Sequence record: PZ452611.1
DNA: 64,000 bases
Direction: 5' to 3' (one strand)
From: a phage
Of the stretch, positions 1 to 60,052 are shown piece after piece; the stretch's first letter is position 1, and each line of letters opens with the position of its first letter. The translations under genes were made by a program, and so were the position numbers. The notes below the pieces were generated by a model that was not told the DNA's origin, ran no database searches, and was given only the letters and a program-made list of their open reading frames with translations.

Positions 1-25
1 CCTTTCGCTCCGGTAGGTTTGCAAT

Positions 26-5643: not shown

Positions 5644-5841
5644 ATGAACGCCTACGGAATCAAAGTACGTCGCAGCACTCGCCAGGTGGTCACCGATCAA
5701 ATGGTTTGCCAGGTGGACGTAACCATCAACAACGGGCAAGGCCTTTATAAATTTCGTCGCGGTCATAGCTATACCCTGCAACAGCTTAATCGTTGCGCCC
5801 TGACAAAAGGTCAGATCAACCACTGGTTTAATAAAAAATAA
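5644..5841 (+). CDS. hypothetical protein
   Basis: 65 aa from internal ATG with GAGAGGA RBS (track ORF starts 5557). Confidence 0.5.
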   Translation: MNAYGIKVRRSTRQVVTDQMVCQVDVTINNGQGLYKFRRGHSYTLQQLNRCALTKGQINHWFNKK

Positions 5842-5844
5842 GTA

Positions 5845-5873
5845 TTGACATATAGTCCGACACCAAATACACT
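5845..5873 (+). promoter_or_regulatory. sigma70-like promoter TTGACA-N17-TACACT
   Basis: consensus -35 and near-consensus -10 upstream of gene 5906. Confidence 0.5.
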
Positions 5874-5905
5874 AAAAGCACAAAAGACACTAAGAGGATA
5901 AAATC

Positions 5906-6304
5906 ATGAAAACCACTACCTTTAATTTTGATAATGCAGACTTTTCTTTTTCTGATGTCAAGAACTGCCGCCGTGATCGTGGATTTTACAAGGCTTATAA
6001 TCTGGTGGGCCTGGACGATGACAATAATTTGCACGAAGTAGCTGAGATCCGGTATTATGCCGCCGCCAGTGGGAACACTTACTACTGCGTTTTTTGGATA
6101 CACGACAACAAGAACAATAAGTACGGCTATACTGGCGGCAAGGCAAGCGGTCACGGTTATGATAAAGCTAACGCAGCACTTGAGAGCGCATTAAATGCCA
6201 TGGGGATCACTGCCGACGGCTGGATCTACGAAGAAGAGTTTTTGTCGGCACTTGCTGACCACCTAGGCTATAAAAAGCACATTGTAACATGCGCCCACGA
6301 ATAA
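5906..6304 (+). CDS. hypothetical protein
   Basis: 132 aa, AAGAGGA RBS. Confidence 0.55.
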   Translation: MKTTTFNFDNADFSFSDVKNCRRDRGFYKAYNLVGLDDDNNLHEVAEIRYYAAASGNTYYCVFWIHDNKNNKYGYTGGKASGHGYDKANAALESALNAMGITADGWIYEEEFLSALADHLGYKKHIVTCAHE

Positions 6305-19955: not shown

Positions 19956-20273
19956 TTAACGTTCTACAAAAATACCGTTCAGTTCAATAACCAGGAATTT
20001 CTGGTCTTCACTATCGTCTCGTGCCAGCACCTCACAGACGTATCGGTCATCTCCATCATCATCGCAGTCAAATACAAGACTGAGAACTTTATCATGATAA
20101 ACCTTCGCCACTACCGCCTCGTAAGTATTGCCGATTGTGAATCCAAGATAATCTCCAATGCATTTGACAACAACATGATCGCCAGCATTCAAGTCAATCT
20201 TCGTCATTACTGCGCTCCTTGGGTAATAATATTGTATGTAAAACTTTAACCAGAGATGTGAATAACGCCCCAA
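19956..20273 (-). CDS. hypothetical protein
   Basis: ORF; real start probably internal Met (MTKIDLN). Confidence 0.45.
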   Translation of the reverse strand: MGRYSHLWLKFYIQYYYPRSAVMTKIDLNAGDHVVVKCIGDYLGFTIGNTYEAVVAKVYHDKVLSLVFDCDDDGDDRYVCEVLARDDSEDQKFLVIELNGIFVER

Positions 20274-20362
20274 AACACACCGATAGCGCTAAAACAGACA
20301 AGGCCATCATTAAAGCTTCAGTAAAATCAGTCACTCCTCACCTCTTGTTAGTCACTATACTG

Positions 20363-20626
20363 TCATTTATCCTTGCCGTCAAGAACTTTTTTAAATCTTT
20401 CAGGGATATCGCCTGTTCTTAGATAGCTCATGACCTCACAAGGTTCCCACTTGAATTTCTTACAAAGCAGGGCGGCTGAGATTGTTTCATTGCGAAAAGA
20501 AAGGATATTAATATCCCATTCTGAGAACCCCAACTTCCGAAGGGTAGCTACAGAAATCCTCACCGCAACCCAGCAGCAAAAACATGCAACAAACGCCACT
20601 GCTATAACCCACATCAGGATGTTCAT
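20363..20626 (-). CDS. membrane protein
   Basis: 87 aa, N-terminal TM helix. Confidence 0.45.
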   Translation of the reverse strand: MNILMWVIAVAFVACFCCWVAVRISVATLRKLGFSEWDINILSFRNETISAALLCKKFKWEPCEVMSYLRTGDIPERFKKVLDGKDK

Positions 20627-20715
20627 ATAAGCACCTTACTGAAATACAAGACACAGTGTTAAGGTTACTGACCAGCAAATAATTAATAGTGCCGTTGCAA
20701 CCTTGGCAAGATTTA

Positions 20716-21003
20716 TCATAGTGCCTCTAAGATTTCATATCCTTCTGGTCGGAATACAAGCCACTCCGTGGCTCCGTTTGGTCGATACGCTTTATACAGA
20801 ACAACCTGATCTCGGCACATGCACATGGCTACATAGTTTTCATCCACACCTGCAGCCTGCATTGCATCTTCTTCTCCGGCAACTGCTTTGCTTACAACTT
20901 CCTTGGTAGGCAGGTGTGCGATCAGCTCGTCACCATCATTAATTCCAAAATGGCGGAGTTCTCCATTGGTATCTTTAATCTTAATCTTAACCAGATCTTT
21001 CAT
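20716..21003 (-). CDS. small acidic protein, paralog family B
   Basis: 95 aa; MK-I/V-K-I N-terminus shared with neighbours. Confidence 0.5.
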   Translation of the reverse strand: MKDLVKIKIKDTNGELRHFGINDGDELIAHLPTKEVVSKAVAGEEDAMQAAGVDENYVAMCMCRDQVVLYKAYRPNGATEWLVFRPEGYEILEAL

Positions 21004-21332
21004 TAGTCTTCCTCCAGGTTCAAAGGCCCTAAGATTTCATATGCCAGATTAGAAGTTACCAGAGGGTCTTCTGCATCTTTAGTATTATACCACCCGTGGA
21101 TAACTAGAGCTCCACCACGCTGCATGTCAAACTGGAACTGTTTTGCCATGTACTCATCAATCTCTAGGATTTCCATGAGGTATTTAATGTTTGGAAGATA
21201 CGCAGTCACTACAGTTCCTTCCACCAATCCTTCAGGCCAACCCACGTCCGGATGACAATCTGGAACTAGAGTGGTCAGCTTAATGGTGTACGCTTTTTCT
21301 GCACGAGCCTTCAGTAACGGGTCAATCTTCAT
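21003..21332 (-). CDS. hypothetical protein
   Basis: 109 aa; start abuts upstream stop. Confidence 0.5.
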   Translation of the reverse strand: MKIDPLLKARAEKAYTIKLTTLVPDCHPDVGWPEGLVEGTVVTAYLPNIKYLMEILEIDEYMAKQFQFDMQRGGALVIHGWYNTKDAEDPLVTSNLAYEILGPLNLEED

Positions 21333-21682
21333 TATTCGTCCTCCTCTTCGGTGCCTGCTTCCAGTAATAAGTTAAGAATATCTTCTGCACAAGGCTCATA
21401 GAACTCTTGACCTTCATTATCGATGATTTTGTAGTCATCCCCGCGAATAATCAGAGGATCACTCTCAAAATTATCGAGACCTTTAACAACGACAACACGA
21501 TCGATTGCCATCATTGTAAGAACTTTATCGACATCTTCCTCTGCTACACCATACTGCAGTAGAATGTCTTTGGTAGGAGGAACAGCATCTACCACAACAC
21601 CGTTACCAAAACCTTCCGGCAAGTTAGCTAAAATATCTTCCGGAACCACACTAACATCAAAACCAGTAATTTCTACTTTCAT
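21332..21682 (-). CDS. small acidic protein, paralog family B
   Basis: MKVEITG N-terminus, acidic C-terminus. Confidence 0.5.
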   Translation of the reverse strand: MKVEITGFDVSVVPEDILANLPEGFGNGVVVDAVPPTKDILLQYGVAEEDVDKVLTMMAIDRVVVVKGLDNFESDPLIIRGDDYKIIDNEGQEFYEPCAEDILNLLLEAGTEEEDE

Positions 21683-21943
21683 TTACAGCACCTCTTCGTC
21701 AACTACTTCATAAAAATGGCCTGGGATTGCAATAGCGTTCTCACCTTCACCTACAAACACAGTTCCGTCAAGAATCAACATCATAAGAATTTCTGGAATA
21801 TCCTCTTCCGGAACGTTGCCAAAACCTTTAATCAGTGTGTAGGTTGGAAGATTTACCTCTAAGATGTCACCATCTTTAGAGCGGAAATCAACACCATCCT
21901 GAATCTCTGCCATTTCAAGGTTTTTCAGTTTAATCTTCATCAA
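21683..21943 (-). CDS. small acidic protein, paralog family B
   Basis: MMKIKLK..., ends YEVVDEEVL. Confidence 0.5.
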   Translation of the reverse strand: MMKIKLKNLEMAEIQDGVDFRSKDGDILEVNLPTYTLIKGFGNVPEEDIPEILMMLILDGTVFVGEGENAIAIPGHFYEVVDEEVL

Positions 21944-22019
21944 TCAGTCTCCCGTCTTGTTAAGATGAAGGTATTATTTCACACAGGGTTGGTGTTGTCA
22001 ACACCTGTGTGCAAGAAAA

Positions 22020-22415
22020 TTACTGAAACAGTGCAGATAAATTACCTTCTGGTGGGAACTTATCTGCCAAAAACGGTGTTAGCACAGTAGCCTTCTGAAG
22101 ATCTGGGGTCCACTCGTTGTTCAGAACATCCCAGTAGTACGCAATGTTGCTGTGTGGGTGCCGCATTACGAACTTTTTCCCTTCGTAGTCATCTGAAACC
22201 TCTACAGAAGAAATAACAACAGAATCTTCAAGGGTTTCTTCATAGAAAGATCCGCCTTCAAATTTCCAACGAGATGCAAGAGCCCCTGCCTTGAACGCTG
22301 CAGATAACGGACTGTCGGCAAGAACATACATTTCTTGCACTCTGTCGCTGCGATCTTTGCTTCTTACGTTGTACACAGTATCTGAGCTATACTCAACACG
22401 GTATAGGCTTACCAT
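22020..22415 (-). CDS. hypothetical protein, paralog family C
   Basis: HPHSNIAYYWDVLNNEWTP matches HPDSRVKHYWNSRTKTWTP in ORF 24222-24620. Confidence 0.55.
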   Translation of the reverse strand: MVSLYRVEYSSDTVYNVRSKDRSDRVQEMYVLADSPLSAAFKAGALASRWKFEGGSFYEETLEDSVVISSVEVSDDYEGKKFVMRHPHSNIAYYWDVLNNEWTPDLQKATVLTPFLADKFPPEGNLSALFQ

Positions 22416-22774
22416 TACCGCACCTCCTCAATAACTTCCACATCTGAACCCACCACAAATGCAAAAGGACAGGTTTCATGAAAGACATCCGGATCGCCGC
22501 CAAGCTTGCTAACAATTTCTCCACCACTAATAAACACAAGCTCACCGATATTCATCAGATTGCTGAAATAGTATCCATAATGATTAAAGAATGCAGCAGG
22601 GTCAGGTAGACTAGTAGCCTCAAGTTCTACATCGGTTGAGATTACTTTCTTATCATAACCTCTCGCCTTCTGAGATGCAAGATCTGCAGAATCTTCAGGC
22701 GACCGGAGATGCACAGGAATTGTTTCACCAATAAAGCGTACTTTCATATTATCACCCAACAACCATAGCTTCAA
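22415..22774 (-). CDS. hypothetical protein, paralog family A-like
   Basis: 119 aa; MKVRFIG internal motif; acidic C-terminus VEVIEEV. Confidence 0.5.
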   Translation of the reverse strand: MKLWLLGDNMKVRFIGETIPVHLRSPEDSADLASQKARGYDKKVISTDVELEATSLPDPAAFFNHYGYYFSNLMNIGELVFISGGEIVSKLGGDPDVFHETCPFAFVVGSDVEVIEEVR

Positions 22775-23015
22775 AAGGGGTCATGAACGAATAAACGGCA
22801 TCATCATCTGCTTCAGGGAATGCTCCCAAAGACTTCATGTCCGAGCCCTTGACAAATACAAGGTTTTGATCAAAAGCTTCTTGGGGGTCAATCCGATACA
22901 TATTTCGTAGAATATCACCTACCTCTTCATCAAGAGGTGAGTATGCTGTGCACGTTTTTCCGATCAAGCTTTGAGAATCAGGGTATCCACCTGAAGTTTT
23001 AAAATAAACAATCAT
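22752..23015 (-). CDS. small protein, paralog family A
   Basis: GYPDSQSLIGKT...VFVKGSDMKSLGA resembles ORF 28532-28765. Confidence 0.5.
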   Translation of the reverse strand: MIVYFKTSGGYPDSQSLIGKTCTAYSPLDEEVGDILRNMYRIDPQEAFDQNLVFVKGSDMKSLGAFPEADDDAVYSFMTPFEAMVVG

Positions 23016-23106
23016 ATAGTATCACCTCTGGTAAGAGATTGGGATTCCTTTCCCACAAATAATTACAAATCTTCCTTATCGAGGAAGTATGCTAATCCAA
23101 GCAGGA

Positions 23107-23376
23107 TTATTCCTCTACAATCTCATACACATCAGGAGTTACAATCAACTCTTCTCCGTTACCCGGTGCAACAAACACCACCAAACCTTCAGGTGTGTGC
23201 TTTTTAGCCATCTCGATAACATCTTCGCGCAGAGCTGGCTCCATCAGATCAAAACCTTCACCCAGGGCATCACGAACCACCTTCATATAGTCCACTGGTT
23301 GTGCTTCAACAATCATGCCTTCAACCAGTCCACAGTTTTTGTCTGCCAGCTCAGTTTTGAATAATTTAATTTTCAT
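23107..23376 (-). CDS. small acidic protein, paralog family B
   Basis: MKIKLFK..., ends YEIVEE. Confidence 0.5.
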   Translation of the reverse strand: MKIKLFKTELADKNCGLVEGMIVEAQPVDYMKVVRDALGEGFDLMEPALREDVIEMAKKHTPEGLVVFVAPGNGEELIVTPDVYEIVEE

Positions 23377-23513
23377 TTAGAGGTCTCCTCAATTATTTGA
23401 TATTAATAGCCGTAACCTAACACATTAACTACAATTGCGATTGCAAACATAATTTCAAAGCATGCAATCTCTACATTTGGGACTAATTTCTTAATCACAC
23501 CCATTGTAGCACC

Positions 23514-23831
23514 TCATTCTCCAAAGTCAATCTTTACTTTGCCTTTCCCCTTACCTTTCTTTCCACCACATTTAGCCAGCTGACGTGCTGCAACATCTAC
23601 CATACGGTCAGTTGCCTCGTAAGCATCACTGCCTTTAGCTTTGGCAATAACTTCTTTTCCAGAATTGTCAAAAATGAACGCCATAACTTCCTGGTGATCA
23701 TTTTCAACTTTTACACTCACACGTGCATAGTTGGCAGAGGGGTGCAAACGCTCCAGCTTAGACATTTTGTGGGAAATGAAAGACACCATACCTTCAGTGA
23801 TTTCTACGTTGCCAGTGATTTCAATTTGCAT
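23514..23831 (-). CDS. hpf: ribosome hibernation promoting factor / RaiA-like protein
   Basis: MQIEITGNVEITEG...KLERL...VSVKVEN...AKAKGSDAYEATDRMVDVAARQL aligns by eye with E. coli HPF recalled from memory (MQLNITGNNVEITEA...ARQL); Lys/Gly-rich tail. Confidence 0.7.
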   Translation of the reverse strand: MQIEITGNVEITEGMVSFISHKMSKLERLHPSANYARVSVKVENDHQEVMAFIFDNSGKEVIAKAKGSDAYEATDRMVDVAARQLAKCGGKKGKGKGKVKIDFGE

Positions 23832-23913
23832 AACGTGTTCCTTTTAAAGAAGAGGGAACCAAACCCTCTTTGAAAACAATGATACTAAATCTGAAGCGTT
23901 GTGTCAACAGTTT

Positions 23914-24204
23914 TTACAGCTTGTTGTCGATAGTTTTTAAAATATCTACAGCAAGATCTGCCATTTTTCGAACATACTCTGCAAACTCAACAGGATCCTT
24001 GATCAAAGAATTCACAGGGTCGTACCCTAGAGCGTTCAAAATGGCTGCAGCATCTACAACCTTCTCATCATTTGCGAAGATCTCTCCGTCAAACTTGTAG
24101 GTCCATTTTGAGTCAACCTTAGCAGAGCAGGGTTTGTCCATGCTTGTTACACCATCGTCTTTAAACTCTCCTGCGTTATCAATATTCAGAACTAAATCCA
24201 TCAT
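23914..24204 (-). CDS. hypothetical protein
   Basis: 96 aa ORF. Confidence 0.45.
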   Translation of the reverse strand: MMDLVLNIDNAGEFKDDGVTSMDKPCSAKVDSKWTYKFDGEIFANDEKVVDAAAILNALGYDPVNSLIKDPVEFAEYVRKMADLAVDILKTIDNKL

Positions 24205-24221
24205 AGTGGTACCTCACTGTT

Positions 24222-24620
24222 TCAGTTTAGCTTTTCTTCAACAACCCCATAGCTTGGGACAGAATCAAGAGCTTTCTGGTTTAAAAGTGGTGTAGCAGAA
24301 TCTGCAAACGGTGTCCAAGTTTTTGTTCTGGAATTCCAGTAATGCTTCACTCTGGAATCTGGATGCACTATAACAAAAACTTTTTCACTTGTCAACACAT
24401 TAATTTCTTCTACACCCTTGCTGATAATTTCTCCGTCATAGCCCCCAGTCTGGTATCCTTCGTACCAGGTTCTTGCATAGGCATAGCCAGCCTGCCAGCA
24501 TGCAGCCTCCTCCGAGGTGGAGATTACGTAGAAGTCCTTCTCAAATTCCGGAATACGCCCTTGCTTTACGCTCCAAGCTCCGCGAATTTTCATTGTAACT
24601 TTGAACAGTTTATTTTTCAC
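24222..24620 (-). CDS. hypothetical protein, paralog family C
   Basis: paralog of 22020-22415. Confidence 0.55.
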   Translation of the reverse strand: MKNKLFKVTMKIRGAWSVKQGRIPEFEKDFYVISTSEEAACWQAGYAYARTWYEGYQTGGYDGEIISKGVEEINVLTSEKVFVIVHPDSRVKHYWNSRTKTWTPFADSATPLLNQKALDSVPSYGVVEEKLN

Positions 24621-24632
24621 AACGGTTACCCA

Positions 24633-24887
24633 TCACAGCTCTGCAATATCTGCATCTGACCCTACCCCAAAGGCATAATAGGACTCTTCCCCGAAATAAT
24701 ATTCAGGTGCACCAGCGGTGATCAGGTCTGATCCTAAGATAAACACCACGTTGTGGCCTACATAACTGTGATGTTGCCGCACAGGATCATCCCACGGCAA
24801 CCCTTCAAAGTATACCGCAGGAACGACCTTTCCCTTCAGGAAGGATTGTCCCAAGTAGACGTTAGAATCAAGAATTTTAACCTTCAT
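24633..24887 (-). CDS. small protein, paralog family A
   Basis: MKVKILDSNVYLGQ...GKVV...GSDLITAGAP. Confidence 0.55.
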   Translation of the reverse strand: MKVKILDSNVYLGQSFLKGKVVPAVYFEGLPWDDPVRQHHSYVGHNVVFILGSDLITAGAPEYYFGEESYYAFGVGSDADIAEL

Positions 24888-25104
24888 GATCGTCCTCCAC
24901 TACCTCTACATCCTCGCCTAGGGCAAAGTTGTAGGTCCACTGACTGTCAAAGCAGTCCTGAGGTGCACCAGCGGCAATAAGATCTGCTCCTTTTATTTTT
25001 AAAAGGTCAGGGTAATCTTCGTTAGGGACAGCAGTAAACACTTTTCCTACTAAAGGCTCCTGACCAATATAGAAGCTTGAATCTAAAACTTTAACTTTCA
25101 TCAA
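24877..25104 (-). CDS. small protein, paralog family A
   Basis: MMKVKVLDSSFYIGQ...GKVF...GADLIAAGAP. Confidence 0.55.
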   Translation of the reverse strand: MMKVKVLDSSFYIGQEPLVGKVFTAVPNEDYPDLLKIKGADLIAAGAPQDCFDSQWTYNFALGEDVEVVEDDHEG

Positions 25105-25388
25105 CGGTCTCCATCAGGTGGTTGTGGGACGTAAACACTGTTACGAATATCGTCCGCAGTATAGTAATAAGTGTCTCCAACCCTATCTCTGGCTGCAATG
25201 TACTCTGCTATGCCAATAAGTGCCATTGATTTGGTGGCGTATCTTCCCAACTCGTTAGCTCCCCAGTAGAATTTAGACCAATAGGGAATAAGACCGAACA
25301 AATATACCTTTTGACGAACTTCCCAGTAAGTGCCTTTCCCGACAAGTTTAAACTCGACTTCACCACTGTTAATCTTTTTCATTATCAA
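25101..25388 (-). CDS. hypothetical protein
   Basis: 95 aa, 4 nt overlaps both sides. Confidence 0.45.
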   Translation of the reverse strand: MIMKKINSGEVEFKLVGKGTYWEVRQKVYLFGLIPYWSKFYWGANELGRYATKSMALIGIAEYIAARDRVGDTYYYTADDIRNSVYVPQPPDGDR

Positions 25389-25681
25389 TCTCCCTCCACC
25401 GTGGTCGGATTGTCAGTAAGAAATTGAGCATTAGCTGGAGGCACACCTGACATTTTCCACACAACCATAAGTTTGTAACCAGGCACTCTATTAAGTGCAG
25501 ATCGAGTAGAGTTTGTGCACGTATATTTTCGCTTTCCAAACCCGTTCTCAAGCATGATCCAGTATCCCGTGTCTTTATCACCTGGAATTGGTAATCCCTC
25601 ATCGTCCACCCATTGAATGGACCATGGCACGATGGCTACAGCTTTATATTTAAACTTTTTAAACCACTCAAAAAGTTTCAT
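25385..25681 (-). CDS. hypothetical protein
   Basis: 98 aa; chosen over overlapping 25369-25602 frame. Confidence 0.45.
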   Translation of the reverse strand: MKLFEWFKKFKYKAVAIVPWSIQWVDDEGLPIPGDKDTGYWIMLENGFGKRKYTCTNSTRSALNRVPGYKLMVVWKMSGVPPANAQFLTDNPTTVEGD

Positions 25682-25776
25682 AATTCAGCCTCGCATAGAC
25701 ATAATCACTATAAACAGGCAAACAATGAATCCGAATGCCACGCCACCCATAAACGTTAATATTGATGCAATCATAG

Positions 25777-25962
25777 TCAATCAGCCTCGCTTGGCAACTC
25801 TTCCACCTTAACATGCCGAAAAGTGTTACCGTAATGGTTGATCCATGACATCAGCTCACTTTCTTGCTCTTCCTCTGGGATGAACTCTCGAATACTGACA
25901 AGTTTTAAGAAAACCCAATCACAATCTGCACCCATTCTACCAGACAGACAATAGTGCTTCAT
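25777..25962 (-). CDS. hypothetical protein
   Basis: 61 aa ORF. Confidence 0.35.
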   Translation of the reverse strand: MKHYCLSGRMGADCDWVFLKLVSIREFIPEEEQESELMSWINHYGNTFRHVKVEELPSEAD

Positions 25963-25981
25963 AAAAACCCTCCATCCTGGT

Positions 25982-26182
25982 TTAGAATACTGCCTCTTTT
26001 AATGATCCAAGGAGCAGCAGGTGTGAAATCTGATCCACATCCATGGTAGATTCAATCTCCTCTTTTTTGAAAGGTTCTCGGCAAAACAGTACTACATTTG
26101 GGTTTTCGCTACGCACTATATAATACAGATCGTTCAAATCATTCTCATAGTAGGTATTAAATTTAAGAATTTTGTCACTCAT
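25982..26182 (-). CDS. hypothetical protein
   Basis: 66 aa ORF. Confidence 0.35.
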   Translation of the reverse strand: MSDKILKFNTYYENDLNDLYYIVRSENPNVVLFCREPFKKEEIESTMDVDQISHLLLLGSLKEAVF

Positions 26183-26466
26183 TTTCTAATCCTCTTCTTA
26201 GATTTTTGTGCAGAAACGCTTTCTGCAATACGAGACAGGCGTTCTTCTGAAGCTTTACCTACCCCAGGTTTCTTGAGCGGGTTATCTTTATGACCGCAAT
26301 CCAATTGGATGCTAGATACCTCCCCAACCTTGTAAGTCAATTCTAACAAAAGGTTGTCGTCCTTGTCAAATGTTTTTACGATAAATTTTTTATCGTCCTC
26401 CTGAACTTCATACCTAGTACCTGCAGTATACAGCATGGTGCCATCAGTGTAGGATATCCAAATCAT
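26179..26466 (-). CDS. hypothetical protein
   Basis: 95 aa, coupled. Confidence 0.45.
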   Translation of the reverse strand: MIWISYTDGTMLYTAGTRYEVQEDDKKFIVKTFDKDDNLLLELTYKVGEVSSIQLDCGHKDNPLKKPGVGKASEERLSRIAESVSAQKSKKRIRK

Positions 26467-26810
26467 TGCACCTCCTTCTGCTGCAACAGCATTAACTCTT
26501 TGTTGGAAATCTTTACTGCTGTCTTTATTGTTCCATCTTCACGGAACCACGACCAGAATTCTACAGTGTCACCACTATCAAGCAAGGCATGACCATGGTA
26601 AAAATCCTTGTCCTTAGACAGTTTCTCATCTATATCTGCATCGACACATTCGTGATCCATAGCATTTTGCCTGAATGCATCGGTTATGCCAATGCATGCC
26701 TTGCTCTCAAGACTGGTATATCCGATATCTTTTAATTCAGTTTCCCAAGTCCAGTATCCTACAAAAGCCACAACAGCTACCCACATTAATATCGATTTAA
26801 TCTTTGACAT
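26463..26810 (-). CDS. secreted or membrane-anchored protein
   Basis: N-terminal hydrophobic segment MSKIKSILMWVAVVAFVGYW. Confidence 0.45.
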   Translation of the reverse strand: MSKIKSILMWVAVVAFVGYWTWETELKDIGYTSLESKACIGITDAFRQNAMDHECVDADIDEKLSKDKDFYHGHALLDSGDTVEFWSWFREDGTIKTAVKISNKELMLLQQKEVQ

Positions 26811-26870
26811 TCTCTCTACCTCTTTCTTAATTTGTTTAATTATGGCACATCCTTTGTGCCTTGTTGCACA

Positions 26871-27332
26871 CTACTTAAACAACAGTTCAAAATAGTGCAA
26901 AATTAACAGAAGTTGAATTACGCCTAGCACAACAGCAAGTATGTTAATCTTAGAATCAAAAAACTTCTTAACTTTTACCCTAAAAGGTTCCTTAATGTCC
27001 TTTACGATCCTATCTATAGATGACCTCATATCCCTGATTACCATCCTGAACATTAAAGACGGATGATCCCTCTCTGTAACGGAATCGAAAACATACTCTC
27101 TTTGATCACAAGGGCCGCCAGCTCTGCGTATTAACCTCTCCACAGAGACCTCGTACGACACACCTGTAACGTAATCATCTATGACAAGGAGTGACGGGTC
27201 TTTATCGTCCAAGGGTATCAAAGTTATCTTTCCAGATTTTGTTAAAATTTCTCCTTTTTCAAGTAAGGTGTACCAATGCTCTCTGCCAAGACTGTTGAGG
27301 CACGTTTTTACATATTTAACAAACATCGTCAC
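26871..27332 (-). CDS. hypothetical protein with C-terminal TM
   Basis: 153 aa; C-terminal LAVVLGVIQLLLILHYF. Confidence 0.45.
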   Translation of the reverse strand: MTMFVKYVKTCLNSLGREHWYTLLEKGEILTKSGKITLIPLDDKDPSLLVIDDYVTGVSYEVSVERLIRRAGGPCDQREYVFDSVTERDHPSLMFRMVIRDMRSSIDRIVKDIKEPFRVKVKKFFDSKINILAVVLGVIQLLLILHYFELLFK

Positions 27333-27532
27333 CCCTCATCGCACGTCTGATATAACCACTCTATAAAATCTTGATACCATTCGCCCTCTGAGCGCTCCGT
27401 AGGCCAATAATCTTCACCCTCTCGTGCATTAAAATCTGAGTATTCAACTTTCCACTCCTTTACCAGCTCGTGGAGAAGGTTTTCAGCCTGCTCTAAAGAT
27501 TTATTTTTTGCCATTGCTGTCTCCTTTTTCAA
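27329..27532 (-). CDS. hypothetical protein
   Basis: 67 aa ORF. Confidence 0.4.
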   Translation of the reverse strand: MKKETAMAKNKSLEQAENLLHELVKEWKVEYSDFNAREGEDYWPTERSEGEWYQDFIEWLYQTCDEG

Positions 27533-27733
27533 GATAGTTATACATCAGAACTGCACCACCTAAGATGGCTACCAGTAACAATACCCCAGATAGCATCTCA
27601 ATAAACATGGCTTGAAACACTGGAAGGTCTCCCTAAATTAACGCACCATTTTAAATACATGCTCTTTTCCCATAAAGGTGCCTGGCTAAGATCTGCGTAG
27701 AACGCAATCTCTTTAAGAACAGTATAAACAGTT

Positions 27734-27970
27734 TTAGGTGCGGTCTCCATCCCTACTCTCCTTTTTCTCCTTACGGATATTCTTGTAGTAATCAACTAGG
27801 CACATTATTACAATGAAGATAACAATAGGCCAAAAAGGTGCAGCAGTGATGATGGTGATAAAATCATCAAACTTCACCTTTCGTCTAGCTACGATGCATA
27901 CACCTGTCAAGAATACCGCTGTTATAACGGCTATTACCAGGTAACCTATTAGCACAGCATTTATACTCAT
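27734..27970 (-). CDS. small membrane protein (2 TM)
   Basis: two hydrophobic helices, basic C-terminus; holin-like topology, weak support. Confidence 0.45.
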   Translation of the reverse strand: MSINAVLIGYLVIAVITAVFLTGVCIVARRKVKFDDFITIITAAPFWPIVIFIVIMCLVDYYKNIRKEKKESRDGDRT

Positions 27971-28001
27971 TAGTCCTCCCTTTTGTAGGTTAAATTATAT
28001 A

Positions 28002-28535
28002 CTACAGATGGTTGCTTATGGTGTCAAGAAAATTATCTCGTTCTTTCTCGGAGTTTTCACAGGTGTAGCTGAAAAACATATCTAGAATAACCTTATTGAT
28101 ATATTCCAGCTCCTCTGTGTTCAGGTACTTAGCAGGATCTACAATGACATCCCAAATATCATACAGACCACACTCATGATATCCATAACGCCACTCAATT
28201 GTCAAGCTGAGCGGCAAATCTTTACCGTCACAAACAACCTTCCATCTACATATGTTGGTATCTGGGCGTATCTGTGCACGGTATACCTGTACAAAATCCA
28301 ATTTGAATTTGAGGTATTCGTCATGCAATTTAAGCACAAAGCTCTCGATTTGTGGAGACACTTTTGCAGCAAACTGTGCGTATTTGTATTTGCACTGGAT
28401 GATCTTTCTGCGTTTTGCAGTTAAATTTTTTGCCGCCAGTTGTTCTTCAGTGTATCTCCACCTACGATCAACAAACGCAACAGGGTCTTTGTCCCCATAG
28501 AGGTCTTCCCAGTTAATCAGAAGCATACCTGTCAC
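28002..28535 (-). CDS. hypothetical protein
   Basis: 177 aa ORF. Confidence 0.5.
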   Translation of the reverse strand: MTGMLLINWEDLYGDKDPVAFVDRRWRYTEEQLAAKNLTAKRRKIIQCKYKYAQFAAKVSPQIESFVLKLHDEYLKFKLDFVQVYRAQIRPDTNICRWKVVCDGKDLPLSLTIEWRYGYHECGLYDIWDVIVDPAKYLNTEELEYINKVILDMFFSYTCENSEKERDNFLDTISNHL

Positions 28536-28765
28536 TCCTCCACAACTTCAAGGCCTTTGCCGCCTCGTTCTGGTAGATTACTTAAAGACAGGTAATACGT
28601 ATAGTCAGGAGAGATCCTGCCAGACTCTGCACCTGCAGCTAATAAATCTTTTCCCTTAACCATGACAACATTATCGTTTGCAGATAACCGTTTTGCTTCC
28701 ACAATTTTACCAATGCAGTCAACCAAGGAAGGGTATCCTAAATCTGTAAGAAATTTAACTTTCAT
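28532..28765 (-). CDS. small protein, paralog family A
   Basis: MKVKFLTDLGYPSL...GKIV...GKDLLAAGA. Confidence 0.55.
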   Translation of the reverse strand: MKVKFLTDLGYPSLVDCIGKIVEAKRLSANDNVVMVKGKDLLAAGAESGRISPDYTYYLSLSNLPERGGKGLEVVEE

Positions 28766-28804
28766 GCTACCTCCTACTTCTACCGTCCCTGGTAAGATAA
28801 ATTA

Positions 28805-29203
28805 TTACTGAACAGAGCGCGGAGCTGGGAAGGATAACTCTTCTAAAGAGAAGATTTCATTTCCCACAATCCATGTTGCCGGATCATCTGGGTTGACTGG
28901 ATAGATAATCATCACCTCGTCCGTGTTACATACCCGCTTTTTACCTGTGAGGTTATCAGCAACCCGCATGCGCGGTTCTTCAGAAATACACAGGTAGCCT
29001 CCTCGGCCCACTGTTCCTTCCACAGGATCCTGCCCTTTGATTACAATGATTATCTTCTCCCCTGTGGCGATATTGCCTTGCACACTAACAGTTTGACCAA
29101 CTTTAGATGTGCCGAACTTGGTGGTTTCAAACATTAAATCTCGAATTACTGTTGCATAGTCTCCAGACACTTTCTTACCTTCTTTAGTGATCTCAATCTT
29201 CAT
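28805..29203 (-). CDS. hypothetical protein, family B-like N-terminus
   Basis: 132 aa, MKIEITK. Confidence 0.5.
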   Translation of the reverse strand: MKIEITKEGKKVSGDYATVIRDLMFETTKFGTSKVGQTVSVQGNIATGEKIIIVIKGQDPVEGTVGRGGYLCISEEPRMRVADNLTGKKRVCNTDEVMIIYPVNPDDPATWIVGNEIFSLEELSFPAPRSVQ

Positions 29204-29472
29204 ACACTGGGCTCCTTAAATGAATCTATGTAATCAATTAAATCCCAAGCATCCCTATGACCTGTCAGAGGGTATACTTCTCCAAGAGGGATCATAGCAA
29301 TAAGTCTATCAAAAACCCAATCTGGACGCAACATTTTATGGTGATACTCCCACTCACCTTCTACAGACTTTTTCTGAGTGATCAGGATCTCTGTGTAGTG
29401 TTTCGCCTGTCTTGAGTAGATTGAGAATGACTTGTACATAAATGACCCCCTCTTGTTGAAAACAAAATACAC
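29200..29472 (-). CDS. hypothetical protein
   Basis: 90 aa ORF. Confidence 0.45.
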   Translation of the reverse strand: MYFVFNKRGSFMYKSFSIYSRQAKHYTEILITQKKSVEGEWEYHHKMLRPDWVFDRLIAMIPLGEVYPLTGHRDAWDLIDYIDSFKEPSV

Positions 29473-29474
29473 TA

Positions 29475-29789
29475 CTACCAGGTCACTGTCAAGTAGGCAA
29501 CTGTGTTATTTTTCTCCGGAGAGATGCCAACAACATCCACCTGCAGACCTCCTGCCCTCAAATCCCCAACAATGTGCGGGAAGTAATCTGAGAGATGCGA
29601 GGGTAGATTTATCGAAAATCCGCATCCCAGAAAGCCTGCTAACGCTTTATTTTGTATCTCCCCTACAATCGCATCATAAATGGAGTTAAGCTCGTCAGGG
29701 AGCGTTACAGGACGTTTTAGCGCTAACTGGTGTAATTTGTCCTTAGCACTCATTTTCATTTCAGGTCTACCTCTGGTGGTGCCAACCAC
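29475..29789 (-). CDS. hypothetical protein
   Basis: 104 aa ORF. Confidence 0.45.
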   Translation of the reverse strand: MVGTTRGRPEMKMSAKDKLHQLALKRPVTLPDELNSIYDAIVGEIQNKALAGFLGCGFSINLPSHLSDYFPHIVGDLRAGGLQVDVVGISPEKNNTVAYLTVTW

Positions 29790-30289
29790 ATAAATGGCGG
29801 CAAGCCTAAACGGTTTTTCTTATCCCACACAAAATATGCATATGCTTGCCCGTCAGTTCTGCCATTTGATTGAAATGACGGACGCTTAGATATTGTGATC
29901 ACAGTGGTAGGTGCATTATCAAGCCACCATTCAAATCTGGCTTTGCTTTCCAGAAAATTAAGACGTAAAAGCATAATAACTACGTCAGCATCTTTCAACG
30001 CCTTGTCTACAAACTCACGAGCCAAGCTGTATGGTGGGTTGGTGATAATACAGTCAACATGGTTGTATTCTGTATTCAGATAGTCAACACCTTCTTGGAT
30101 TTCTCCCCATGCAGATCCTAACGGCATACGGGAGTAGAACACACCTGAGGCACTATTCCTGCAAGGCTCTAAGTAGGTCCAGTCTTCTGGGAACGGAATA
30201 AGGTCATACAGCCCTTCTGCACACCACTCCGGTGTCACATACTCATCGTAGGCGTTACGTTGTTCATCAGGTTTTCTAGCACAAGTCAT
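29756..30289 (-). CDS. DNA methyltransferase (N6-adenine/N4-cytosine class, small phage Dam-like)
   Basis: CIITNPPYS catalytic motif IV. Confidence 0.6.
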   Translation of the reverse strand: MTCARKPDEQRNAYDEYVTPEWCAEGLYDLIPFPEDWTYLEPCRNSASGVFYSRMPLGSAWGEIQEGVDYLNTEYNHVDCIITNPPYSLAREFVDKALKDADVVIMLLRLNFLESKARFEWWLDNAPTTVITISKRPSFQSNGRTDGQAYAYFVWDKKNRLGLPPFMWLAPPEVDLK

Positions 30290-59239: not shown

Positions 59240-59314
59240 GCCCTGTTAGCTTAGTGGATAAAGCAGCGGCCTTCTAAGCCGTTGACACTGGTTCGAGTCC
59301 AGTACGGGGTGCCA
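59240..59314 (+). tRNA. tRNA-Arg (anticodon TCT)
   Basis: hand-folded cloverleaf: 7 bp acceptor with two G-U pairs, anticodon loop CTTCTAA, T-loop TTCGAGT, CCA encoded. Confidence 0.75.
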
Positions 59315-59318
59315 AATT

Positions 59319-59405
59319 GGGGAGTTATCCCGTAGAGGTAGCGGTGTAGACTGTAAATCTATTGTCATTGCGACTCGGGTGGTTCGACTCCACCACTCCC
59401 CACCA
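59319..59405 (+). tRNA. tRNA-Tyr (anticodon GTA)
   Basis: perfect 7 bp acceptor GGGGAGT/ACTCCCC, loop CTGTAAA, long variable arm, T-loop TTCGACT, CCA. Confidence 0.8.
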
Positions 59406-59519
59406 AATTTATATTTTTAGATGCATAAATAATACAGATAATGGCATTGATATTTATCGTCGTTTATACTAGTCACTAACTGCTCGAAAATCAGTGTCAT
59501 TATCAGTATAATTTATAAA

Positions 59520-59610
59520 GGAGGGTAGGGAGCAATGGTGCTCAAGCGGTCTTGAAAACCGTCCCGTTGAGGATGACTCGATGATGGTTCGATTCCATTA
59601 CTCTCCGCCA
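59520..59610 (+). tRNA. tRNA-Ser (anticodon TGA)
   Basis: acceptor GGAGGGT/ACTCTCC, loop CTTGAAA, long variable arm, T-loop TTCGATT, CCA. Confidence 0.75.
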
Positions 59611-59708
59611 CATTGTTGACCTTGTAATTAAGCGAAAGCCGGAAGCAGAACCGGATTATCAAATGTTACAGTCGTCATCGCCGACTAGCAACATGGTCAA
59701 CATACTGA

Positions 59709-59805
59709 GCTAGGTAAGCCCTTTGGCAAGGGCGAGGATTTTTAATCCTGAAAATAGACGAGGTAGTCGTTGAATACATAGGTGGTTCGATTCCATCACC
59801 TAGCA
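59709..59805 (+). tRNA. aberrant tRNA-like element (possible tRNA-Lys TTT-like with about 30 nt extra arm)
   Basis: perfect acceptor GCTAGGT/ACCTAGC, canonical D-arm and T-arm (GGTGGTTCGATTCCATC), anticodon-like loop TTTTTAA, but 30 nt insertion between anticodon and T arms. Confidence 0.35.
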
Positions 59806-59812
59806 CCTTTTT

Positions 59813-59888
59813 GCTGATGTAGCACAATCGGTAGTGCAATTGATTTGTAATCAATAGGTTGTAGGTTCAAGTCCTGCCATCAGCACCA
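59813..59888 (+). tRNA. tRNA-Thr (anticodon TGT)
   Basis: acceptor GCTGATG/CATCAGC, loop TTTGTAA, T-loop TTCAAGT, CCA. Confidence 0.8.
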
Positions 59889-59889
59889 A

Positions 59890-59964
59890 GGCCCTGTAGC
59901 TGGAAGGTTCAAGCAAGCGACTCATAATCGCCAGACGGTGGTTCAATTCCACCCAGGGCCACCA
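59890..59964 (+). tRNA. tRNA-Met (anticodon CAT; Ile-lysidine type not excluded)
   Basis: acceptor GGCCCTG/CAGGGCC, loop CTCATAA, T-loop TTCAATT, CCA. Confidence 0.75.
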
Positions 59965-59975
59965 AATAGTAAATA

Positions 59976-60052
59976 CTCCGCGTAGCTCAGCTTGGTAGAG
60001 CGCCTGATTTGGGATCAGGAGGTCGAGTGTTCGAATCACTCCGTGGAGACCA
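59976..60052 (+). tRNA. tRNA-Pro (anticodon TGG)
   Basis: C1-G72 acceptor, D-arm GCTCAGCTTGGTAGAGC, loop TTTGGGA, T-loop TTCGAAT, CCA. Confidence 0.8.

Follow-up and report, generated by a model that had tools for sequence, protein, structure and literature searches.

Three families of small paralogous proteins in a minus-strand gene block of Escherichia phage rV5

What are the many small proteins encoded side by side on the minus strand of one 64,000-nucleotide (nt) stretch of phage DNA (record PZ452611.1, whose whole length we call the window), and are those that look alike by eye really related? The first-pass annotation, made from the letters of positions 20,716 to 29,203, had proposed tandem arrays of at least three paralogous families, whose names A, B and C we keep. 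By megablast, window positions 20000-30000 are 100% identical over their full length to O157 typing phage 5 (KP869103) and rV5 (NC_011041) and 90-98% identical to other Vequintavirus genomes, more than 100 in number; the window is Escherichia phage rV5/E. coli O157 typing phage 5, a Vequintavirus. Twelve small genes of the block fall into three families (five in A, five in B and two in C) that span 20716-28765, about 8 kb of the 138-kb genome, and account for 12 of the approximately 26 genes of the block. We consider it reasonably probable that these are old local duplicates of small, mostly acidic, non-virion accessory proteins, carried in a sigma-70-driven unit and acting as early binders in takeover of the host.

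Paralogy was assessed by all-against-all BLASTP of 132 strand-consistent window proteins; by Smith-Waterman (SW) alignment of 32 block proteins with 200 shuffles each (496 pairs); by hhalign comparison of 528 pairs, using profiles enriched with orthologues from a divergent relative; and by hidden Markov model (HMM) searches against the window proteome and reversed decoys, with leave-one-out profiles for family B. In all four, members resemble one another and are set apart from real and reversed decoys and from shuffles. The top 10 of the 496 SW pairs all fall inside the families first proposed, 16 of the 17 best hhalign pairs lie within one family, and within-family similarity stands above shuffled controls (z=21 for 24877/24633 and z=16.9 for family C, naming genes by their lower coordinate). 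At the DNA level the paralogues have diverged past recognition, with the exception of one 31-nt repeat. A six-frame scan of the whole genome (1012 open reading frames (ORFs) of at least 40 amino acids (aa)) with the HMM of each family detected no member beyond 20716-28765. Every ORF listed by the first-pass annotation is present on the minus strand; the members, with their rV5 gene numbers where these apply, are as follows.

28532-28765, minus strand: family A, gp122, 77 aa; phrog_5009 at E=6e-36, BLASTP to 24877 at E=6e-7, hhalign 97%
24877-25101, minus strand: family A, gp135, 74 aa from ATG 25101; opens the first A-A-C module; the modelled protein
24633-24887, minus strand: family A, gp136, 84 aa; BLASTP to 24877 at E=2e-14, SW z=21, hhalign 99.9%
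22752-23015, minus strand: divergent family A, gp142, 87 aa; opens the second A-A-C module; phrog_5009 at E=1e-4, with its own family phrog_13920
22415-22747, minus strand: divergent family A, gp143, 110 aa from ATG 22747; phmmer from 24877 at E=9e-4, SW z=8 to 24633 and 24877
24222-24620, minus strand: family C, gp137, 132 aa; phrog_7379 at E=1e-73; directly after the first A pair
22020-22415, minus strand: family C, gp144, 131 aa; phrog_7379 at E=2e-66; directly after the second A pair, with a 1-nt overlap
23107-23376, minus strand: family B, gp141, 89 aa, the weakest-linked member; leave-one-out E=6.6e-5, SW z=6.1 to 21683, hhalign 38% to 20716
21683-21940, minus strand: family B, gp145, 85 aa, first of the four-gene B array and downstream of promoter P150; leave-one-out E=2.7e-5, hhalign 95.5% to 21332
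21332-21682, minus strand: family B, gp146, 116 aa, net charge -22; leave-one-out E=4e-4
21003-21332, minus strand: family B, gp147, 109 aa; hhalign to 21332 85%, E=6e-6 over 67 columns, leave-one-out HMM E=0.007
20716-21003, minus strand: family B, 95 aa, shorter in the rV5 annotation; leave-one-out E=1.2e-4, SW z=8.0 to 21332, hhalign 53% to 21683
28805-29203, minus strand: not a member; gp121, 132 aa, conserved, with its own family phrog_5748

Family A holds up in full, with all five of the ORFs first assigned to it recovered by BLASTP, SW and HMM. Three of them (24633, 24877 and 28532) match phrog_5009 over their full length at E=7e-32 to 2e-38, and an iterative HMM search seeded with 24877 gathers 24633, 28532 and 22415, after which the profile finds 22752, itself detected at E=8.6e-8 by a profile of the other four members (best decoy 0.2) and at SW z=6.6 to 28532. 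The solitary copy 28532 aligns with 24877 at SW z=14.7, and the gene for a 174-aa protein (28002-28526) starts 5 nt downstream of it. The true starts are most likely ATG 25101 and, for the ORF first given as 22415-22774, ATG 22747 (MKVRF...), because rV5 is so annotated and PHROG profiles match from there. Both proposed members of family C are likewise related (BLASTP E=4.5e-9, both phrog_7379). A Kelch repeat was considered for family C (24222, residues 53-87), whose profile scores E=2e-10 only against designed six-fold symmetric SAKe proteins (SAKe6); that score adds up weak matches over six identical blades, none of them significant singly, natural Keap1 reaches E~1.5, and the match is probably spurious and due to the designed repeat proteins. 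A further hhalign match, of 24222 to 28002-28535, came from a Bas59 fusion protein within the profile.

Family B is the weaker of the proposals and stood for four of its five listed ORFs. Genes 21332, 21683, 20716 and 23107 are each the top non-member match of a leave-one-out HMM, with best decoys at 0.1-0.7, and a profile of only two sequences, 21683 and its 51%-identical allele in phage MiataMamis, matches 21332 at E=6e-8 and 20716 at E=1e-3. The fifth ORF, 28805-29203, shows no link by SW, HMM (E>=2.9) or hhalign (<=2%), ends in FPAPRSVQ rather than in acidic residues, and belongs to a separate PHROG; as judged from its profile alignments, the overlooked 21003-21332 is the fifth member instead. 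A single superfamily of A and B finds no backing in the sequences, given that the profiles do not detect one another, the best A-B hhalign value is 13% (23107/28532) and 24877 scores E=0.5-0.7 against B profiles. Possible additional paralogues in the window (18017/3252/60099 and 20363/26463) are marginal at E=0.003-0.1. The last two, 20363-20626 and 26463-26810, both on the minus strand, have a similar N-terminal hydrophobic segment (MWVIAVAFVACF / MWVAVVAFVGYW), a likeness that is itself marginal (phmmer E=0.04-0.12; 55% by hhalign across 13 columns) and may come from nothing more than a shared membrane anchor.

Could the resemblance be produced by translation signals rather than by descent? 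The families would then not be homologous, and their likeness would come from A-rich MK[IV]K starts, Glu-rich ends and composition. A GGAGG/GAGG Shine-Dalgarno sequence precedes the start of every family member by 5-10 nt, and the downstream gene's Shine-Dalgarno lies within the last codons of the upstream gene, as in GAA GTT GTG GAG GA before 28535 and GAAGAGGAGGAC before 21332. Because GAGG/GGAGG codes for Glu/Gly, acidic C-termini are enriched where the next start lies within 8 nt: among window proteins, the last six residues hold 1.67 Asp/Glu when the stop is <=8 nt from the next start, as against 0.89 otherwise (P=3e-4), and 1.39 against 0.83 (P=0.004) when the twelve family members are set aside. 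Acidic ends are thus about twice as common at such junctions, and it was on exactly these start and acidic-end features that 28805-29203 was misplaced. The acidic VEE C-terminus first taken as a mark of family B is in part a ribosome-binding-site constraint, which explains that false placing, but not wholly so, as 23107 keeps its EIVEE end with the next gene 91 nt away. The alignments, moreover, run the full length with conserved internal motifs, within-family pairs head both the 496 SW and the 528 hhalign comparisons, leave-one-out profiles place members three to four orders of magnitude from real and reversed decoys, and few proteins outside the families begin with M(M)K[IV] (2/10 among the 132 proteins). 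We therefore regard non-homology as very improbable indeed; for A and C it is largely refuted.

Family A also yields a fold. The AlphaFold2 model of 24877, built from an 11-sequence alignment of paralogues and orthologues, has a mean predicted local distance difference test score (pLDDT) of 92.7 and a predicted template modelling score of 0.80, with five antiparallel strands, a short helix following strand 3 and SH3-like structural neighbours, so that family A is confidently predicted to be an SH3-like five-stranded beta-barrel. Its best structural neighbours are the KOW domains of Spt5/NusG and SH3-like ribosomal proteins, with Foldseek scores against the PDB that are not significant; a sequence profile of the family found no solved relative in the PDB, and assignment to the KOW family (PF00467) was rejected, as no member has a Pfam match at E<=0.1. 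The paralogues share a conserved core with the motif G-x-[DE]-L-[IL]-x-x-G-A and differ chiefly by an insertion between strands 2 and 3, which is absent in 24877 and 28532 and in the others measures 12 (24633), 18 (22752) and about 45 (22415) residues.

This domain reaches well beyond rV5. A profile search of 1.84 billion representative proteins returned 50 clusters at E<=1e-3, mostly of 65-87 residues, with the pattern MKVKLL..GGY.G...GK.V.A ... G.[DE]L[IL]..GA ... Y.F..G.E.E[VI].E.; a few of their chains carry two to three repeats and one is fused to DUF3310. With tblastn and the BFVD database, the A domain is found in Krischvirus (RB49/Phi1), Moonvirus Merlin, T1-like phages, Stephanstirmvirinae, and Proteus and Vibrio phages, always in uncharacterised proteins, while a separate homologue search for the A and C proteins returned close Vequintavirus relatives only. 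Phage Phi1 has at least two adjacent A-domain genes (ORF073 at 1e-10 and ORF074 at 3e-9) plus three weaker neighbours, and a Klebsiella phage has two neighbouring genes with the domain; these adjacent copies make multi-copy arrangement a recurring property of family A. For families B and C, tblastn found no relatives outside Vequintavirus.

Conservation in related phages, which the first-pass annotation had asked of true coding sequence, is borne out. Across seven other Vequintavirus genomes all twelve genes are intact wherever the region is present, at 79-100% aa identity and with a pooled ratio of nonsynonymous to synonymous polymorphism (pN/pS) of 0.04-0.33, the same as that of neighbouring genes, and copies are 85-100% identical in about 118-123 Vequintavirus records. 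A syntenic, metagenomic distant relative (L015) keeps the gene order with four A, five B and one C gene, at 30-97% identity per protein. Since the copies are intact and conserved even there, they are genuine genes and old duplications; the duplications are local, and every copy is kept under purifying selection. At one position of L015 (8802-9098, equivalent to 5731-6027 of the related L014), between the C gene and the B array, there is an extra gene matching Pfam PF27050 (Phage_P22_Y8K6) where rV5 has only promoter P150. Eighteen GenBank records of the MG0656xx series (for example MG065662.1, our L008), titled 'UNVERIFIED Campylobacter phage', are 93-97% identical to rV5 here, and this host label looks doubtful because the records are classified as Vequintavirus.

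Copy number nevertheless varies among relatives, through a hybrid A gene, a deletion in Bas59 and losses in L015. In two assembled contigs, L011 (133 kb) and L012, a single 70-aa gene replaces 24877 and 24633, its N-terminal part resembling the former and its C-terminal part the latter, and the 256 nt that are missing equal the spacing of a direct repeat in rV5. This is unequal homologous recombination between tandem A paralogues, with the repeat as its substrate, and recombination and deletion thus continue to add or remove copies.

24705-24735, no strand assigned: 31-nt direct repeat, copy 1, 84% identical to its partner; codes for G-x-D-L-I-x-A-G-A-P
24961-24991, no strand assigned: 31-nt direct repeat, copy 2, at a spacing of 256 nt from copy 1

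The BASEL phage EduardKellenberger (Bas59), isolated on E. coli K-12, is without window positions 24308-28129 and, with them, two A genes and the greater part of one C gene. At least some of the set is therefore dispensable, being absent from a viable phage. In L015 and L014 the second tandem A gene is reduced to a 44-aa remnant and a 24222-type C gene is absent, and phage V18 (L007, KY683736.1) has three deletions in the block (window positions 27679-28493, 25999-26178 and 25281-25496). For 22752 and 22415, the V18 orthologues appear in its annotation as short fragments, which we ascribe to frameshifts or sequencing errors because the DNA aligns contiguously.

The genes lie within a long leftward unit that also encodes a ClpP-like protease, a Dam-type methylase and PhoH. 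Read in the order of transcription, A-A-C occurs twice and four B genes are contiguous:

Order 1-3, minus strand: 28805 (unrelated); 28532 (A); 28002 (174-aa protein), then about ten unrelated small genes
Order 4-6, minus strand: 24877, 24633, 24222 (A, A, C); 23914 (unrelated); promoter P144
Order 7-10, minus strand: 23514 (HPF); a 33-codon ORF (unrelated); 23107 (B); 22752, 22415, 22020 (A, A, C)
Order 11-12, minus strand: promoter P150; 21683, 21332, 21003, 20716 (B, B, B, B)
21973-22001, minus strand: consensus sigma-70 promoter P150, TTGACA-17-AATAAT with extended -10, upstream of the B array; annotated in NC_011041
23879-23907, minus strand: consensus sigma-70 promoter P144, upstream of HPF/RaiA, 23107 (B) and the second A-A-C module

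Both promoters are intergenic. The junctions had been described as abutting or overlapping by 1-4 nt, which is true in part: abutment or overlap of 0-4 nt is seen at 21683/21332/21003/20716, 22415/22020, 25101/24877 and 29200/28805 (within the B array and at 22415/22020 the value is 0 to -1 nt), but 24877/24633 overlap by 11 nt and the others are separated by gaps of +4 to +91 nt. This layout is compatible with translational coupling but by itself does not establish it, because each gene has its own Shine-Dalgarno sequence. The isoelectric point (pI) of all A and B members is 4.05-5.4, against a window median of 6.0, and 21332-21682 is 25% Asp+Glu.

Three other genes of the block bear on its setting:

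23514-23831, minus strand: HPF/RaiA gene, gp139 (Pfam Ribosomal_S30AE), between the two A-A-C modules
26871-27332, minus strand: virion protein, annotated gp128/ORF133, the gp133 of PMC3606486
27734-27970, minus strand: gp129, putative holin with two transmembrane domains (PMC3606486)

The HPF/RaiA product is a ribosome hibernation factor encoded by the phage; its gene has a consensus sigma-70 promoter of its own, and the protein is 94-100% identical in Vequintavirus and 64% identical in L015. Gp133 is reported to be among the predominant virion proteins by mass spectrometry and is the sole block product that the rV5 paper names as a virion protein in its main text (PMC3606486); its gene and that of gp129 sit mid-block among small genes, distant from the structural and lysin genes (PMC3606486). 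Elsewhere in the window, at 59240-60052 on the plus strand, seven tRNA genes (Arg, Tyr, Ser, Thr, Met, Pro) lie clustered; among them is a 99-nt ARAGORN call at 59709-59807 with no amino-acid identity given and a four-base anticodon, 'atcc'.

What, then, might these proteins do? A host-takeover or anti-defence role, as first suggested for such arrays, is plausible. In the reading that we favour, that of early binders in takeover, the twelve genes would be expressed early by host RNA polymerase from the sigma-70 promoters P144 and P150, and their products would be small binding modules that attach to host, and possibly phage, macromolecules while the cell is being taken over, each paralogue presumably with a partner of its own that its variable loop and surface would select. 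Being negatively charged, the proteins are more likely to bind other proteins or to mimic nucleic acid than to bind nucleic acid. Several points weigh against this reading. The early timing is drawn from promoter consensus and layout, no published transcript data for early expression of the block were found in the literature, and promoter-like sequences in the region number 33 against 26.9±5.3 in shuffled sequence, not above controls. The families match nothing characterised, as the first-pass annotation had supposed, with no homologue in Pfam, NCBIfam, PADLOC, the PDB (by sequence, and by fold for A) or the literature, and no functional link or experiment was found in the literature for the three families or their PHROG numbers. 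Although the twofold A-A-C order suggests that the module arose by segmental duplication, gene order is the basis for this, and similarity scores do not resolve which A copy of one module corresponds to which of the other, perhaps through sequence exchange between neighbouring copies. The AlphaFold2 model of family C, finally, is poor (pLDDT 56.7) and unusable for a fold search.

An anti-defence repertoire, in which each paralogue would counter a different immune system or allelic variant and duplication would supply the inhibitors, shares much with the favoured reading, as the proteins are small, acidic, probably early and tightly packed. It gains from the net charge of -22 of 21332, which is DNA-mimic-like, from the strongly divergent MiataMamis allele (51% identity) at one locus, and from the variable copy number, including the absence of part of the block from Bas59, a K-12 isolate. 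Yet the high identity of the copies and their low pN/pS carry no arms-race signal, with little presence/absence mosaic, and Vequintavirinae are described as exceptionally susceptible to restriction-modification and commonly targeted by abortive-infection systems (PMC8594841). No match to a known anti-defence protein was found in Pfam, NCBIfam or PDB sequences, and none of these PHROGs is linked to a function in the literature; on balance we judge this explanation unlikely. The proteins could instead be cofactors of phage transcription, translation, replication or assembly, for example barrels that dock on RNA polymerase or, with HPF/RaiA, on the ribosome. The KOW and ribosomal neighbours of the model, the HPF/RaiA gene between the A-A-C modules and a strong conservation per paralogue that fits a fixed housekeeping role all speak for such cofactors, but KOW and ribosomal barrels bind RNA and are basic, unlike the A members, which are acidic and lack a Pfam KOW match, and two A copies with most of one C are missing from a viable phage, which leaves this explanation quite improbable. 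A further proposal concerns family A as a widespread phage 'binder scaffold', an SH3-like barrel whose freely varying strand 2-3 loop and surface would be deployed, again and again in unrelated virulent phages, in tandem or fused panels that inhibit host proteins; in rV5 two A proteins and one C protein would act together as a unit that was duplicated whole. We hold it to be rather unlikely.

Much of this locus was already on record. In rV5 the block is annotated as gp121-gp148 (ORFs 126-153), its genes have been in GenBank since 2008, and the labels across gp121-gp148 read 'hypothetical protein' except for gp139 (RaiA/HPF) and gp128/ORF133 ('virion structural protein'); the rV5 genome paper makes no mention of paralogues. 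What is new here is the full 5/5/2 membership, with 22752 and 22415 now joined to A; the recognition of B as a family; how family A folds and how widely it occurs; the variants made by recombination and by deletion; and the embedded Shine-Dalgarno account of the acidic ends. Large virulent phages spend many genes on small proteins without assigned function, and reducing 12 of about 26 block genes to three families leaves fewer independent unknowns. The natural deletion and hybrid variants are ready-made genetic controls, and a function for one family A protein would transfer to many genomes because the family occurs in therapy coliphage groups and BASEL-type collections. The link between acidic ends and embedded ribosome-binding sites is in turn a warning against calling small-protein families by eye.

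How do these families compare with known systems? In PHROGs, end-to-end matches (E=1e-24 to 1e-76) exist for phrog_5009 (the A core), phrog_13920 and phrog_13661 (divergent A), phrog_7379 (C) and phrog_12155/12359/11868/12794/12457 (B), all labelled 'unknown function'. PHROGs already join the three core A genes and the two C genes but split A into three and B into five groups, so that most of the paralogy is not recorded there. The A-domain proteins of other phages (Phi1/RB49 ORF073-074, Citrobacter phage Merlin, Shigella phages pSf-1 and Sf20, and Vibrio phage VpV262 Q8LT73/Q8LT74) have the same domain by profile, at E down to 1e-10 and with BFVD template modelling scores up to 0.83, and frequently occur as neighbouring genes or as two to three repeats per chain; they are only 20-45% identical and no function is established for any of them, so they speak to breadth and not to mechanism. 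With SH3-like barrels such as the KOW domains of Spt5/NusG, PsaE, eukaryotic SH3 and ribosomal L21e/L24, family A has no sequence relationship and no significant Foldseek match, and where the KOW and ribosomal barrels are basic it is acidic and carries a G-x-[DE]-L-[IL]-x-x-G-A motif of its own.

Ocr, ArdA and Arn are acidic DNA-mimic phage inhibitors. The rV5 proteins resemble them in being small and strongly negative, 21332-21682 especially, but show no sequence match to them, and no homology to characterised anti-defence inhibitors (Ocr/ArdA-type mimics, Acr and others) was found; the reported high restriction sensitivity of Vequintavirinae further argues against an Ocr-like activity. Small early host-takeover gene blocks are also well known from large virulent phages, as in the host-takeover module of SPO1 and the 'plastic periphery' of T4. 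T5's pre-early genes form a comparable block (PMC13250531). The rV5 block differs from these in having no homology to characterised takeover proteins and in drawing 12 of its approximately 26 genes from three families. It resembles them in its dense genes of 60-130 codons with strong Shine-Dalgarno sequences, host-type promoters and partial dispensability, and it adjoins genes for the host-modulating HPF, ClpP-like and PhoH products. The arrays are, in this company, an ordinary and already annotated kind of feature, since dense blocks of small, partly paralogous early genes are familiar in large virulent phages.

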